A stretch of DNA of 35,354 bases, taken from the NCBI RefSeq assembly GCF_003334355.1, contig NZ_QOWP01000035.1. One strand, given 5' to 3'. Under the pieces are notes generated by a model. The model did not search any database, was not told where the DNA came from, and was given only the letters and a program-made list of their open reading frames with translations. The stretch comes from Escherichia coli (GTDB lineage Bacteria > Pseudomonadota > Gammaproteobacteria > Enterobacterales > Enterobacteriaceae). The stretch's first letter is position 1. Each line of letters starts with the position of its first letter. A program made the translations under genes and the position numbers. This document shows, in pieces, positions 3,273 to 17,693 of this stretch.

Positions 3273-4421
3273 TTACACGTGAGCAACGGGTTTCGGCGTA
3301 TGACCGGCGTTGCGCAGCAGCATCAGCAAATAGATAAACGATACGCTGGCGATCATGATAAACAATAAATTATCGGAGAAATTCTGCATTAGCATAGCGG
3401 TAAATGACGGGCCAAGCAGACTTCCCACAGTATAGCTCAACAGTAAGGCCTGGTTCATCGCCACCAGTTGATGATGTTCAACTTTCTCGCAAGCCCATGC
3501 CATCGCCACCGGATATAGCGTAAAGCCAGCGGCACCGAGGATGAATAACGCTGGGGCCATCGCCGCCTGGCTAAGCATCGCGATACTGCCGAGAATGACG
3601 ACAAAGACCTGAACACGCAACACCAGCAGTCGACCAAACTTATCCGCCAGACGTCCAATCGGCCATTGTCCAAGGATACCCGCACTGACCAGTACCGCCA
3701 TCCAGAAACCAATGCTGGCATTGCTCACCCCTTTGTGATTGAGGTACAGCGGCATCAGGCCATATAGAGATCCCAGAACGATTCCTGAGATAATGCAGCC
3801 ATTCACGCCAAGCCGCGCCTGACGGAGTTTTAGCATTGACGTAATTGACGTCGAATCATGGTTTTCAGCCTGCTGATTCAGCACACGCGTAAACAACAGC
3901 GGTAAGATCCCTGCCAACGTCAAACCTGTAACCCACGGCAATACGGACATCAGCTCGGTTGAAACTTTGCTGACCAGTAACTGGCCTAAAAACGTTCCCA
4001 CGTAATAAACCATCATATACGCAGCAAGCAAACGCCCACGGTTACGTGACGTCCCACTGCACATCAGCGCGCTCTCAACAACCACCCAAATCATGGCACA
4101 GCCGACGCCCGCGACAAAACGCCAAGCCAACCAGCTCCAGAATCCAATCATCAGGCCAAGGCCGGCACAGCCAGCGGCAAAAATGAAGGAGGCCAGATAA
4201 TAGCTGCGGTTAAAGCCAATGCGCTTAATGACATACCCTGTCAGCAATGTACCGACAAGGTTGCCGGTAAAATAGGATGAGCTGACAACGCCTACCTGCC
4301 ATGTGGACATGTGTTCCTGGGCGAGCCAAAGCGGCACGAGTGTATTTAACACCGCAATCGCCAGAGTCAACAAAAGCAGGCCAGACAGCAAAAGCATGAC
4401 AGGCCGGGTATACGTGGACAT
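3273..4421 (-). CDS. ycaD: MFS transporter, 382 aa
   Basis: ORF track; 12-TM-like hydrophobic profile; ATG at 4421; sequence recognised as YcaD. Confidence 0.9.
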
Positions 4422-6888: not shown

Positions 6889-9333
6889 TTACACCTTTTC
6901 AACCTGAACAAGGTTTGTATGTGACGGATTCCCCTTAGCGAGAGGAGACGGACGTTGAGTGGTCAGTACGTTAATACAACCACCCTTATCGACACGTTTT
7001 GCATCCGGGTCATACCAGGCACCTTCACCCAGTGCGACTACACCCGGCATCATTCGTGGCGTCACTTTCGCCTCAATATGAACCTCACCACGATCGTTAA
7101 AGATCCTGACTTTATCGCCGTTGTGGATACCGCGTTTTTGGGCATCAAGCGGGTTGATCCACATTTCCTGACGGCAAGCCGCTTTCAGCACATCAACGTT
7201 GCCGTAAGTTGAGTGAACGCGAGATTTATAGTGGAAACCTGTAAGCTGCAGCGGATACTGTTTGTTCAGCGGATCCTGATAACTTTCAAAGCCCGGCGTG
7301 TAGATCGGCAGTGGATCGATCACATCGCCTTCAGGCAATTCCCAGGTAGCGGCAATGTCAGCCAGCGCCTGCGAATAAATCTCAATTTTGCCCGATGGCG
7401 TAGTCAGTGGGTTTGCCTGCGGATCTTCACGGAAGGCTTTATAAGCAACGTGATGCCCTTGTGGGTCGCGCTTTTTAAAGATCCCCTGCTTGCGGAACTC
7501 TTCAAACGTTGGCAGTTCAGGAATCGCTTCCCGCGACTGGGCATACAGATGCCGCATCCACTCTTCCTGGGTACGGCCTTCAGTAAACTGTTGCTCAACG
7601 CCAAGACGTTTTGCCAGTTCGCTGGTCATTTCATAGATGGTCTTACATTCAAAGCGCGGTTTAATCACCTGATCGTTGAAAATCACGTAAGACATATTCC
7701 CGCAGGATGCATCCAGCGCAAAGTCCATCTGTTCGGAAGCGGTGCAGTCAGGCAGCAGGATGTCAGCATATTTCGCCGATGAGGTCATGTGGCAGTCGAT
7801 AACCACAATCAGCTCGCACTTCTTATCATCCTGAAGGATTTCATGGGTACGGTTGATTTCAGAATGCTGGTTAATCAGGCAGTTACCGGCATAGTTCCAG
7901 ATCATTTTGATCGGCACATCCAGCTTATCTTTCCCGCGTACACCATCACGCAGCGCCGTCATTTCCGGGCCACGTTCAATGGCATCGGTCCACATAAACA
8001 TCGAAATGCTGGTCTGGATCGGGTTTTCCAAGGTCGGCATACGGACAAACGGTAAGCTGTATGAACCTTCACGCGCGCCGCTGTTGCCTCCGTTAATACC
8101 AACGTTACCGGTCAGAATCGCCAGCATCGAGATAGCACGGGTTGCGATTTCACCGTTAGCGTGACGCTGCGGGCCCCATCCCTGGCTGATAAACGCCGGT
8201 TTGGTACTACCGATTTCACGAGCCAATTTGATGATTTTGTCTGCCGGAACACCAGTGATTTGCGAGGCCCATTCCGGCGTTTTAGCCACGCCATCTGGCC
8301 CTTCACCCAGAATATAAGCTTTATAGTGGCCATTTTTCGGCGCACTGGCTGGCAGGGTTTTCTCATCGTAGCCAACGCAATATTTATCGAGGAATGCCTG
8401 ATCCACCAGGTTTTCAGTGATCATGACGTACGCCAGACCGTTAACCAGTGCGGCATCTGTTCCCGGACGAATAGGGATCCACTCATCTTCGCGCCCGGCA
8501 CCGGTGTCGGTATAGCGCGGATCGATGATGATCATGCGGGCATTAGATTTCTGGCGTGCCTGTTCAAGATAGTAAGTCACCCCACCGCCACTCATTCGCG
8601 TTTCGCCAGGGTTATTACCAAACAGCACTACCAGCTTACTGTTTTCGATATCCGACGGGCTGTTGCCATCTGCCCAGCCGCCGTAGGTATAGTTCAAACC
8701 TTCCGCAATTTGCGCGGAGGAGTAGTCGCCGTAATGGTTCAGATAGCCGCCGCAGCAGTTCATCAGCCGCGCGACCAGGGTATTTCCCGGCGGCCAGGAG
8801 CGGGTCATGGTGCCGCCCAGCGTACCGGTGCCATAGTTCAGATAGATAGACTCGTTGCCGTACTCTTTGATCAGGCGCTGCATATTGGTCGCGATGATGT
8901 CGTAGGCTTCTTCCCAGCTAATGCGCTCGAATTTGCCTTCACCGCGCGCCCCGACTCGTTTCATCGGATATTTCAGGCGGTCCGGATTGTAGACACGGCG
9001 ACGCATGGAACGCCCACGCAGGCAGGCGCGAACCTGGTGCAGGCCGTCGTAATTGTCATCGCCGGTATTGTCCGTTTCGACATATTTGATTTCACCGTCC
9101 ACGACGTGCATACGTAGCGGGCAACGACTACCACAGTTAACTGTACAGGCGCTCCAGATAACCTTTTCGTCTGATTTTGTTGGAATGGCGCTATCGACAG
9201 CGTGCGCAATCCGACTAAAAGGTAATGTTAATGCGCTGCTGGCCATTGCCAGGCCGCCGATCGCTGTCGTTTTTACCAAACCACGGCGACTCACCTCAGC
9301 AGCCAATACCGCATCAGGGATTTTCGTTTTCAT
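6889..9333 (-). CDS. dmsA: DMSO reductase catalytic molybdopterin subunit, 814 aa
   Basis: ORF track; twin-arginine signal (SRRGLVK) at N-terminus; molybdopterin oxidoreductase sequence; ATG at 9333. Confidence 0.95.
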   Translation of the reverse strand: MKTKIPDAVLAAEVSRRGLVKTTAIGGLAMASSALTLPFSRIAHAVDSAIPTKSDEKVIWSACTVNCGSRCPLRMHVVDGEIKYVETDNTGDDNYDGLHQVRACLRGRSMRRRVYNPDRLKYPMKRVGARGEGKFERISWEEAYDIIATNMQRLIKEYGNESIYLNYGTGTLGGTMTRSWPPGNTLVARLMNCCGGYLNHYGDYSSAQIAEGLNYTYGGWADGNSPSDIENSKLVVLFGNNPGETRMSGGGVTYYLEQARQKSNARMIIIDPRYTDTGAGREDEWIPIRPGTDAALVNGLAYVMITENLVDQAFLDKYCVGYDEKTLPASAPKNGHYKAYILGEGPDGVAKTPEWASQITGVPADKIIKLAREIGSTKPAFISQGWGPQRHANGEIATRAISMLAILTGNVGINGGNSGAREGSYSLPFVRMPTLENPIQTSISMFMWTDAIERGPEMTALRDGVRGKDKLDVPIKMIWNYAGNCLINQHSEINRTHEILQDDKKCELIVVIDCHMTSSAKYADILLPDCTASEQMDFALDASCGNMSYVIFNDQVIKPRFECKTIYEMTSELAKRLGVEQQFTEGRTQEEWMRHLYAQSREAIPELPTFEEFRKQGIFKKRDPQGHHVAYKAFREDPQANPLTTPSGKIEIYSQALADIAATWELPEGDVIDPLPIYTPGFESYQDPLNKQYPLQLTGFHYKSRVHSTYGNVDVLKAACRQEMWINPLDAQKRGIHNGDKVRIFNDRGEVHIEAKVTPRMMPGVVALGEGAWYDPDAKRVDKGGCINVLTTQRPSPLAKGNPSHTNLVQVEKV

Positions 9334-13074: not shown

Positions 13075-16000
13075 TTAGTCAAACGGCGGTGGGGCCAGCA
13101 CTTCACGATTACCGTTGTGCCCCTGTTCGCTGACAATCCCCTGCGCTTCCATCTGTTCGATAATACGCGCTGCACGGTTATAACCAATGCGGAACTGACG
13201 CTGTACGCCAGAAATTGACGCTTTGCGTTTTTCAGTGACAAACTGCACCGCCTGATCGAACAACGGATCCAGTTCTTCAGCGCCATCGAAACCACCCGCA
13301 CCACCTTCGCTTTCGCTGTCGGAGGTGATGCCATCAACATACTGTGGGCGACCACGCGCTTTCCAGTCCTGCACCACGGCATGAACTTCCTGATCGCGAA
13401 CAAAAGCACCATGGACACGTACCGGCAACGTGGAGTTCGGCCCAGAGTAGAGCATATCCCCCATACCCAGCAGTGATTCCGCGCCAGCCTGATCAAGAAT
13501 GGTACGTGAGTCAATCTTACTGGATACGGTAAAGGCGATACGGGTCGGAATATTCGCTTTAATCAGACCAGTAATAACATCAACCGATGGACGCTGAGTT
13601 GCCAGTACGAGGTGGATACCCGCGGCACGGGCTTTTTGCGCCAGACGTGCTATCAGCTCTTCCACTTTTTTACCTACCGTCATCATCAGGTCGGCAAATT
13701 CGTCAACCAACACCACAATGTATGGTTCTTTTTTCAGCACCGGATGCTGGGCATCCATACTGTCACCCGGCTTCCAGTACGGGTCTGGAATCGGACGCAT
13801 CATGCGATCGGCTTCAGCAATTTTTTCGTTATAACCCGCCAGATTACGCACACCCAGCGCAGACATCAGTTTATACCGACGCTCCATCTCGTTAACACAC
13901 CAGCGCAGCGCGTTGGCGGCATCTTTCATATCAGTAACGACTTCCGTTAACAGGTGCGGAATGCCTTCATACACCGAAAGCTCCAGCATTTTCGGGTCGA
14001 TCATGATGAAACGCACATCTTCTGGCTGTGCTTTATAAAGCATGCTCAGGATCATCGCGTTCACACCGACAGATTTACCGGAACCGGTAGTCCCCGCAAC
14101 CAACAAGTGCGGCATTTTCGCCAGATCGGCAACCACCGGCTCACCGGCGATATCTTTACCCAGCACCACGGTTAATGGCGACGGATTATCGCGGAATTTG
14201 GCGTTATCCAAAACTTCGCGCAGATAAACGGTTTGTCGTTTTTTATTTGGTAACTCCAGACCTACATAGGGTTTGCCAGGAATAACTTCAACGACACGCA
14301 CCGCCACCGTCGAAAGTGAACGGGCAAGGTCCCGTGACAAGTTAGAAATGCGCGCCGCTTTTACGCCAGGAGCCAGGTTAAGTTCAAAGCGAGTGATAAC
14401 CGGCCCCGGAGAGTAATTGACGACATCGGCTTTAATACGGAAATCAGCCAGACGCGCTTCCACCAGACGAGCCATTTGTTCAAGCGCAAAGGTATCTACC
14501 GGCTCCACTTCGCTCGGCGGCGGTGTCAGCAAATCCAGAGAAGGCAGCGGCGTCGTCGGTTTATGCAACGGACGGCTGTCGCCATTACGCATCAACAGCG
14601 GATGAAGCAGGGTATCCTGCGGTTGTGGCGCAACTGGCTGTTGTGGCTGCTGATACTGCTGCTGCGGCGCAACCGGTTGTTGCGGCTGCTGATATTGCTG
14701 CTGTGGCGCAACCGGTTGTTGCGGCTGCTGATATTGTGGCTGCGGCGCAACCGGCTGTTGTGGCTGCTGATACTGCGGCTGCGGCGGAACTGGTTGTTGC
14801 GGCTGCTGATATTGCTGCTGCGGTGCAACCGGTTGTTGCGGCTGCTGTACAGGTTCAACAATTGGCGTAAACAACGGTTCGTGTGGACCATCATCCAGCA
14901 ACGCTTTCATTGGCGAAAATTCAAAATCATCCAGCGAGAACGGATTCGCCCCAGCCGGTTGTTCGCCGGAATAACGTTGTTGTTGAGTTTGCGCAAACTG
15001 ACGAGCCAGTTCAGCCTCTGCCGCAGCATCTGCATCTTCTGCGTTTACGGGCACATCATGTTGATACTGTTCGCCATAGCGTTGCTGCTGTGTCTGGGCG
15101 AACTGACGTGCCAGTTCATCCTGCTGCATCGCATCGATTTCATCATCGTTGTACTGATCGCCAGAATCGTACTGATTGCGCTGGGCTTCACGGGCTTTTT
15201 CTTCCGCCGCACGCTGTGAGGGCAGCTTAATACCGTAAGACGCCAGTTCACGACGAGTTGGCACGCGGATACGTTTCGGTCGTGGCAACTGCGGACCAAT
15301 CCCCTCTTTGACCTGAGGACGCGGTCCACCGCTATTTGCCAGACTGAAGACTGGCGCGGCAACGGTTGCGGCAGCCCCCGTCGCCAGTGTCGCTTTTTTC
15401 ACGCCAGATGCCAGCGGGGAAACAGCGGCAGCGGCTTCTACTGGAGGTACTGCTGCAACAGAAGGTGCTTTCAGCGAAGATTTGATCGGTTCTGGTTCTT
15501 TAACCGGTTCTGGAATCGGTTGATACCAGGCCGCAAGTTGTTCACGTTCACGGGCTCGCTTCTCTTCAACTTCTTCAAAGTAGTAAAGCGGCGGACGCGC
15601 GGGTTTTGTCTCTTCTACAACGGGTTCAGGCTCCACAACAGGCTGCTGTTCAACGGGTTGCGGCTGTTGGTACAACGGCTCCTGAGCGGCTGGCTGCTGA
15701 TAAGTTTGCTCAGTCTGGTATGTAGACTGTGGAGCAAAAGTGGATTGCTGCTCTTCGGCTTGCCAGGCGTTACCTGCCACCGGTTGTTCTGGCGCAGGGG
15801 CATAATACGGCTGTTGCGCAGGTTGTTCAGCTGCAGGTGCATAATACGGCTGCTGCGGCTGTACTGGTTGTTGCAGCGGCTCATTATATTGCACTGCAGG
15901 CTGCGCATATTGTGACTGCTGTGGGTAACCTTCCGGTGCAGGAGCAATAACCGGCTCTCCCGTTTGTGGACCCGGTACAGGCTGCCAGGCTACTGTAGGT

Positions 16001-17064
16001 TGCGCAGGTGGAACATCAACAGAGGCAACAGGCGGCGTCTGAGTCACAGGTTCAACCGGCGCAGCCCAGCTTTGTGTCGCCGTGGTAGCAGCAGCTGCTA
16101 CAGCGACAGGTTCGGTAATTGGCGCACCGTTTAATAATGGATCGTATTCGTCATATTCTGGCTGCGTTGCACGATTGCCCGAAAATAGGACGTCGTCCGG
16201 GTCGGCAGCCACACCGCGTGCAGTGTAGGTAATCTCTTCGTCATCATCCATCCGCTTACCGGAGAACAACGCAGCGTCTGTTTGCCGCCCCATCGGATTA
16301 ATGAATTTTTCCGCCAACCGTTTACGACGCGCTAGCGCGCCGCGAAGAATACGGGCACGGCGTGATTCATGCTGTTTGCCGTGATTTTCATCTTCATACT
16401 CTTCGTCGTCTTCATACTCATCTTCATCGACCCAGGTATCATCGCGACGGGTACGATTACTGGCGAAGGTGAGAATGTTTAAAATCCAGCCGCCGAGTTT
16501 TTCAGCAATGGTCACCCATGACCAACCGGTGAACAACGTCAGGCCCGCTGCCCAAACGCAGAGCAGCGCAATAGTTCCCCCGCTACTGTGTAGCAGTGGT
16601 TGTAGCGTAGTGCTTAGTAAGCTGCCAATGACGCCACCGGAGGCAAAATACCAGATATCGTCAGCGTTGATTGCCGCCAGACCACAGGAGGTAAGGATGA
16701 GCGCCAAAACGCCAATGATGCGTAGCGAAACGGCAAAATAATCAATGTATTCGTCGCTGGACTGATGACGCCAGGCAAACCAACAACCGCCGACAATAAT
16801 GACGGGAATGGTGTAAGCCATCACGCCAAAAATAAAGAACAGCGTATCTGCCAACCACGCACCGGGCATCCCACCTAAATTATGGATAGGTTCATGCCAG
16901 GCCGTTTGCGACCAGCTGGGGTCCGAAGGGTTAAAGCTTAGTAAGGCAGCCATCAACCAGACGGCAAACAGGACAATAAGGATCAGCAACGCCTCCAGAA
17001 GGCGGCGGCCGCTACTTAACTTTGTCAATGTGACTTCTTTGTCTTCAGTGTATTCCTGGCTCAA
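13075..17064 (-). CDS. ftsK: DNA translocase FtsK, 1329 aa
   Basis: ORF track; N-terminal membrane domain, long Pro/Gln-rich linker, C-terminal motor with Walker A GTTGSGKS; start codon TTG (plus caa at 17062-17064) with GGAGA SD. Confidence 0.95.
14617..14847 (-). repeat. In-frame 39-bp tandem repeat (about 5.5 copies) in the ftsK linker
   Basis: Plus-strand unit ggcgcaaccggttgttgcggctgctgatattgctgctgt repeats with few substitutions (copies starting 14627, 14666, 14705, 14744, 14783); encodes [10 protein letters not shown](P/Q)QY on the minus strand. Confidence 0.9.
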
Positions 17065-17140
17065 GAAAGGCTCTCCAGGTTACAGGCTTTTCCTGCCCGA
17101 TGCTAAAACGGACAACAGTACCAGGTTACCCCAGTACTGT

Positions 17141-17160
17141 TGCTGTATGGATTAACAGGA
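17141..17160 (-). promoter_or_regulatory. LexA (SOS) box of the ftsK dinH promoter
   Basis: Plus strand tgCTGTatggattaACAGga = CTGT-N8-ACAG; minus strand reads TCCTGTTAATCCATACAGCA; about 80 bp upstream of the ftsK start in the lrp-ftsK intergenic region. Confidence 0.75.
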
Positions 17161-17198
17161 GTGTAATCAAAATACGCCGATTTTGCACCTGTTCCGTG

Positions 17199-17693
17199 TT
17201 AGCGCGTCTTAATAACCAGACGATTACTCTGCTTGACTTCTTCCATAACAACGTATGTCCGTGTGTCATTGACGCCAGGCAGACGCAGCAGGGTTTCCCC
17301 CAGCAACTTACGGTAGGCTGACATATCCGGCACGCGTGTTTTCAACAGGTAGTCGAAATCACCGGATACTAAATGACACTCCTGAATTTCTTCAAGTTTT
17401 TGTACAGCGGTATTGAATTGTTCAAACACATCCGGTGCGCCACGATTCAGAGTAATCTCAACGAATACCAGAAGTGATGCATCCAGATAATGGGGGTTAA
17501 GCAGCGCCGTATAGCCCTGAATAAACCCTTGTCTTTCCAGCCGACGCACACGCTCAAGGCACGGCGTTGGGGAAAGTCCCACACGTTTAGAAAGCTCGAC
17601 GTTAGAAATACGCCCATCCTTTTGCAACTCATTAAGAATGTTACGATCGATACGGTCGAGATCTTTGCCAGGGCGCTTCTTGCTATCTACCAT
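17199..17693 (-). CDS. lrp: Leucine-responsive regulatory protein, 164 aa
   Basis: ORF track 17199..17747 trimmed to ATG at 17693 (MVDSKKRPGKDLDRIDRNIL); AsnC/Lrp HTH and RAM domain. Confidence 0.95.
   Translation of the reverse strand: MVDSKKRPGKDLDRIDRNILNELQKDGRISNVELSKRVGLSPTPCLERVRRLERQGFIQGYTALLNPHYLDASLLVFVEITLNRGAPDVFEQFNTAVQKLEEIQECHLVSGDFDYLLKTRVPDMSAYRKLLGETLLRLPGVNDTRTYVVMEEVKQSNRLVIKTR

Follow-up and report, generated by a model that had tools for sequence, protein, structure and literature searches.

The LexA operator of the dinH promoter of ftsK in Escherichia coli: score, promoter geometry, conservation and a hairpin downstream

The SOS operators of sulA, recA, umuDC and recN share with the box of ftsK the pattern CTGT-N8-ACAG, the overlap with core promoter and transcription start site and the occlusion by LexA. 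The ftsK box at the promoter dinH is itself a known system, described by Lewis et al. 1992/1994, Fernandez de Henestrosa et al. 2000 and Dorazi & Dewar 2000 and covered by RegulonDB/EcoCyc. The 20-mer appears in a list of SOS boxes that precede UV-induced genes (PMC3009722), and ftsK appears in a table of LexA-regulated genes with known SOS box (PMC6590174). The pair LexA-ftsK has served as a gold-standard repressor site and was recovered in two Reg-Seq studies (PMC7567609, PMC12133099). Mutations in the LexA site raise expression, as is typical of a repressor (PMC7567609), and the LexA footprint at ftsK is lost with H2O2 (PMC12133099). FtsK expression is reported to rise in the SOS response (PMC4080785), while in Salmonella treated with the mutagen MX, ftsK goes up only 1.2–1.4-fold (p = 0.18; PMC2225428). 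A review (PMC4080785), citing Dorazi & Dewar 2000, names two promoters for ftsK, of which the SOS promoter dinH is essential and P1 is dispensable.

Here, we analyse a stretch of 35,354 nucleotides of E. coli DNA (NCBI RefSeq assembly GCF_003334355.1, contig NZ_QOWP01000035.1; in the following, the window), in which a LexA operator upstream of ftsK had been predicted at 17141–17160. The site is the same object as the E. coli ftsK/dinH SOS box: 20-mer, genes and spacer are identical, and nothing is different. We conclude, with little room for doubt, that 17141–17160 is the LexA operator of the damage-inducible dinH promoter of ftsK. This operator is already known as the reference LexA site of ftsK, and its confirmation adds no new biology. 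For this conclusion, LexA dependence, start site and promoter essentiality are taken from the literature, with direct LexA binding and the start site resting on secondary citations, while sequence, score, position and conservation come from the present analysis.

Compared to the operators of sulA, recA, umuDC and recN, the ftsK box is weaker, with 16.4 bits versus 20–28 bits. It differs from strong consensus operators by TC instead of TA at positions 1–2 and by CC in the spacer centre. Unlike the genes behind such strong operators, ftsK is essential and needs basal expression, and its induction is modest.

Score and gene context of the ftsK box

The LexA (SOS) box at 17141–17160 reads TCCTGTTAATCCATACAGCA on the minus strand and TGCTGTATGGATTAACAGGA on the plus strand. 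Its core is CTGT-N8-ACAG with both CTGT/ACAG half-sites intact, exactly the sequence and strand that the original prediction had given. The assignment is based on sequence, position weight matrix (PWM), conservation, the published 20-mer and Reg-Seq. Relative to TACTGTATATATATACAGTA, the box carries 6 mismatches in 20 positions; the spacer between its half-sites, TAATCCAT, is A or T at 6 of 8 positions.

The box lies between lrp, the upstream gene (17199–17693, minus strand), and the regulated gene ftsK (13075–17064, minus strand; TTG start, 1329 aa), both placed by the ORF list and by the way RefSeq annotates identical DNA. The lrp stop codon TAA is found at 17201–17199 on the minus strand and the ftsK start codon TTG at 17064–17062 on the same strand, with a spacer of 134 bp; the predicted location within a short lrp–ftsK intergenic region is thus correct. 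The distance to the TTG codon, put at about 80 bp in the prediction, amounts to 76 nt from the proximal edge of the box and 86 nt from its centre, which makes the estimate a fair one. A Shine–Dalgarno region TGGAGAG (GGAG) is located at 17071–17077 (minus strand), identified from the sequence and from the conservation of CCTGGAGAG in the alignment. Over 200 nt around the site, the window is identical to K-12 MG1655. A 501-bp query finds matches in all 5426 of 5426 complete E. coli genomes, with annotated lrp and ftsK there, and 5386 of 5427 E. coli records carry the very same 80-mer around the LexA box. The most divergent variant inspected, E. coli CUVET19-1426 (L083), lacks 2 nt (AC) from the 3' arm of the hairpin discussed below; its LexA box is unchanged.

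The bare pattern is weak evidence and is not significant on its own. CTGT-N8-ACAG occurs once in the window versus 0.31 expected instances, and at least one instance is found in 26 of 100 shuffles of the window. Since such a count cannot establish significance, we used a PWM, symmetrised and derived from the remaining 17 SOS boxes of E. coli in Table 4 of PMC3009722, with the ftsK box left out. Scoring with a LexA matrix had been proposed together with the original prediction. The score of TCCTGTTAATCCATACAGCA is not low: at 16.39 bits it ranks first in the window, with a margin of 4.4 bits over the second-best match (11.94 bits). By leave-one-out scoring, the ftsK box is 14th of the 18 known boxes and is found inside the validated range, above the boxes of uvrD, dinG, dinB and polB. 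With an iid background, the probability of such a score is 1.1e-6 per position, which corresponds to 0.037 expected sites for the window and 1.2e-4 for the spacer; among first-order Markov simulated windows, 10 of 300 reach the score. Unlike the core pattern, the full 20-mer match is significant.

We could not detect a second LexA site in the lrp–ftsK region by PWM, where the next best match scores −0.8 bits; one preprint speaks of “several LexA sites” at lrp–ftsK. Elsewhere in the window, the next-best matches are at 3426–3445 (11.9 bits), without the CAG half-site, and at 7865–7884 (11.4 bits). Both are probably chance matches.

Promoter geometry and conservation in Enterobacterales

In supplementary files 1 and 11 of PMC7567609, the LexA-regulated start site of ftsK is given as MG1655 933138 and attributed to Lewis et al. 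1992. Using the MG1655 ftsK coordinate 933224 and the identity of the window to MG1655, this reported start site is placed at 17150 (minus strand). The LexA box then spans −10 to +10. Reg-Seq places the LexA repressor footprint at −8 to +4 of the same start site (PMC7567609), with repressor-like information at −8, at −6 and from 0 to +5, all within the box. RNAP-like information is strongest at −38 to −35 (GTGC, 17188–17185), and further RNAP-like information is found at −16 and at −13 to −11.

From these data we infer a weak promoter with the hexamers GTGCAA and TACACT at a spacing of 17 nt. The putative −10 hexamer TACACT (17160–17165, minus strand) is supported by Reg-Seq and by TACAC, which is invariant in 43 aligned Enterobacterales sequences and is found directly 5' of the LexA box. 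TACACT precedes the reported start site by 9 nt, and the box begins with the last T of this hexamer. The putative −35 hexamer GTGCAA (17183–17188, minus strand) is likewise supported by Reg-Seq and lies within the block GGTGCAAAA (17181–17189, minus strand), which is conserved from Escherichia to Photorhabdus. The position of the box over −10 hexamer and start site is consistent with promoter occlusion by LexA. A sigma-70 consensus scan returned no promoter on the minus strand because both hexamers are weak. An alternative pairing of a −35 element TTGATT (17170–17165) with a −10 element TACAGC (17147–17142), also at 17 nt, was rejected. TTGATT is not conserved and is replaced by TTGGTT, TTCAGC and TTAGGT in other genera; TACAGC is positioned downstream of the published start site, and the Reg-Seq information there is repressor-like, not RNAP-like.

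We compared 80 lrp loci, taken from different species of Enterobacterales and anchored on the Lrp protein. They include Escherichia, Salmonella, Citrobacter, Klebsiella, Enterobacter, Serratia, Pectobacterium and Dickeya, as well as Hafnia, Edwardsiella, Proteus, Morganella, Photorhabdus, Xenorhabdus and Sodalis, among others. A LexA box of 12–21 bits is found in 76 of the 80 loci, 35–52 nt past the lrp stop codon, and in those 76 it is without exception the top PWM match of the 3.5-kb locus. Invariant positions are T1 C2 C3 T4 G5, A9 T10 and T14 A15 C16 A17 G18. The spacer varies among lineages, with TTAATCCATA, TGTATGTATA, TGAATTTATA and TTTATGCATA as examples. Fixed half-sites combined with a free spacer are, at the level of the alignment, the pattern expected for a LexA-recognition site. 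The Salmonella box is identical to that of E. coli, and box scores in other lineages are often above the E. coli score, reaching 20.8 bits in Serratia and Hafnia. The predicted match to the known dinH promoter of ftsK is thus borne out by the PWM score, by 76 of 80 loci and by identity to the 20-mer published in PMC3009722.

The LexA box is not universal in Enterobacterales. No box above 10 bits is found in 4 of the 80 loci, three from Providencia (L055, L057, L059) and one from Moellerella (L056), and the GTGCAAAA/TACAC promoter blocks are missing from the same four, at about 1993–2500 of these loci. In the three Providencia loci, the lrp–ftsK spacer is about 400 nt long and ftsK, with an ATG start, begins about 320 nt beyond the hairpin; for the Moellerella locus, the ftsK start was not found. 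Judged from these sequences, ftsK may no longer belong to the SOS regulon in the Providencia/Moellerella lineage.

Two side observations concern the ftsK leader. The unusual TTG start and its Shine–Dalgarno context CCTGGAGAGCCTTTCTTGAGCCAGGAATA (17062–17077, minus strand) are nearly invariant in the 80 loci; the start codon is ATG in Morganella and Providencia. At about 17083–17098 (minus strand), a lineage-specific insertion of 14–15 nt forms the small hairpin GGGCAGGAAAAGCCTG, which in Enterobacter takes the form CAGGC-N7-GCCTG. Escherichia, Citrobacter, Salmonella, Klebsiella, the E. cloacae complex and Pluralibacter carry the insertion; the other genera do not.

The conserved hairpin between box and ftsK

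Directly downstream of the box, a conserved RNA hairpin GCAACAGUACUGGG-GUAA-CCUGGUACUGUUGU, followed by CCGUUUU, occupies 17112–17143 (minus strand). It is supported by folding, covariation and a Term-seq 3' end. The last 3 nt of the LexA box belong to the hairpin as well, which is found at +8 to +39 in the ftsK leader. Its predicted stability is −24.3 kcal/mol (z −4.9). Compensatory changes occur at all 9 consensus pairs in 47 sequences, with 97.4% of cells paired; 0 of 500 shuffles match this covariation, and pairing is about 40% in slid controls.

Under two growth conditions, Term-seq maps an RNA 3' end at 933176, which corresponds to 17112 and falls exactly on the foot of the stem (PMC7815308). 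In the same data set, this 3' end has a Rho score of 1.03, which is not significant and classifies it as not Rho-dependent, and an intrinsic-terminator score of 1.70 versus a threshold of 3.0. Coverage in direct RNA-seq is 475 upstream versus 419 downstream of the hairpin. Trimming by an exonuclease as far as the stem could also have produced this 3' end. CCGUUUU comes after the stem, which has UGUUGU at its foot; in every lineage, the flank on the 3' side is rich in T. On the minus strand, a terminator consensus scan flagged nothing between lrp and ftsK because the U-tract falls short of what the rules of the scan require. In Rfam, the spacer gave a chance hit only (E = 0.53), and no RNA family was assigned to the hairpin.

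Providencia and Moellerella keep the hairpin about 60 nt past the lrp stop codon, without promoter and box. Given this retention, we assign the hairpin to the lrp 3' end, where it is probably a terminator-like or stabilising structure. In most Enterobacterales, the dinH promoter–operator is nested between lrp stop codon and hairpin, and it follows that dinH transcripts must pass through the hairpin. This arrangement resembles that of promoters embedded in the 3' part of a preceding gene, before its terminator hairpin. Tentatively, LexA and terminator read-through might together determine the output of ftsK, with the hairpin acting as a built-in attenuator. The same tentative joint reading would take promoter, operator and hairpin as one module, possibly conserved as such in most Enterobacterales, of which Providencia and Moellerella retain the hairpin only. 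Unlike in leader-hairpin/attenuator systems, attenuation at dinH is putative; the terminator score is low at 1.70, and the coverage hardly falls. Reg-Seq values across the hairpin (+8 to +39) are small, of mixed sign and uninformative on attenuation.

Alternative readings and the regulation of ftsK

A chance match of the palindrome, devoid of LexA function, would agree with the ordinary frequency of the 16-bp core given above and with the roughly 5 sites of this PWM score that are expected by chance per 4.6-Mb genome. For the 134-bp spacer, chance predicts a vanishing number of such sites, and the box recurs at the orthologous position throughout several families with invariant half-sites and variable spacer. 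Together with the functional footprints published in PMC7567609 and PMC12133099, this conservation effectively refutes a chance origin, to which we assign a negligible probability. It is also very improbable that the 20-mer is conserved as promoter, start-site, leader or hairpin sequence, with incidental recognition by LexA. Such constraint would be in line with the single nucleotide that the box shares with the −10 hexamer, the 3 nt shared with the hairpin and the reported start site inside the box, and it could account for the non-consensus C2, whose invariance LexA recognition leaves unexplained. The invariant positions, however, correspond to what LexA recognises, the symmetric CTG/CAG plus the central AT, and the LexA score is kept or even raised in lineages with other spacers. 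Furthermore, site mutations raise expression, the footprint vanishes on SOS induction, and the hairpin without box in Providencia shows that hairpin and box are separable. The preferred reading is hence that of a LexA operator.

The original prediction had further assigned to ftsK both read-through from lrp and SOS-inducible transcription. The SOS promoter stands. The documented second promoter, P1, is located inside the lrp ORF and dispensable (PMC4080785), and it differs from simple read-through from the lrp promoter. In the same review, dinH is no mere SOS add-on: it is essential and the main ftsK promoter. The implied model, in which ftsK would be fed mainly by lrp read-through and the LexA promoter would be a minor supplement upon damage, draws on the lack of a canonical terminator flagged by the scan between lrp and ftsK, on the similar RNA-seq coverage on either side of the spacer and on the existence of P1 upstream of the spacer. 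It is unlikely, given that P1 sits within lrp and is dispensable while dinH is essential (PMC4080785 citing Dorazi & Dewar 2000), that deletion of the lrp ORF is tolerated and that lrp and ftsK are separated by a conserved hairpin, at which a Rho-independent RNA 3' end has been mapped. With this 3' end between box and ftsK, at least part of the lrp-derived transcription probably ends before ftsK.

The window contains neither lexA nor recA; E. coli encodes both. For the preferred reading, we propose that the 20-mer acts as the single LexA operator of dinH, the main promoter of the cell-division/DNA-translocase gene ftsK. A LexA dimer on the two CTGT/ACAG half-sites would cover −10 to +10, touch TACACT and span the start site, and RNA polymerase would thereby be hindered. 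Upon DNA damage, RecA-stimulated self-cleavage of LexA would free dinH, and ftsK transcription would increase. With 6 of 20 positions off consensus and a low rank among validated boxes, repression of dinH by LexA is probably leaky. Leaky repression would agree with dinH supplying the essential basal expression of ftsK and with modest induction.

The original prediction illustrates that a real operator is recognisable from sequence alone. The operator and its putative weak promoter (GTGCAA, 17 nt, TACACT), fixed across Enterobacterales, provide a broad phylogenetic footprint of modest value. Of similarly modest value is the hairpin with a mapped 3' end downstream of dinH, which could matter for the inducibility of ftsK; if it is an attenuator, it could explain the weak SOS induction of this gene. 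Through this site, FtsK, the DNA translocase that sits at the septum and serves to clear and resolve chromosomes during division, is linked to the DNA-damage response.
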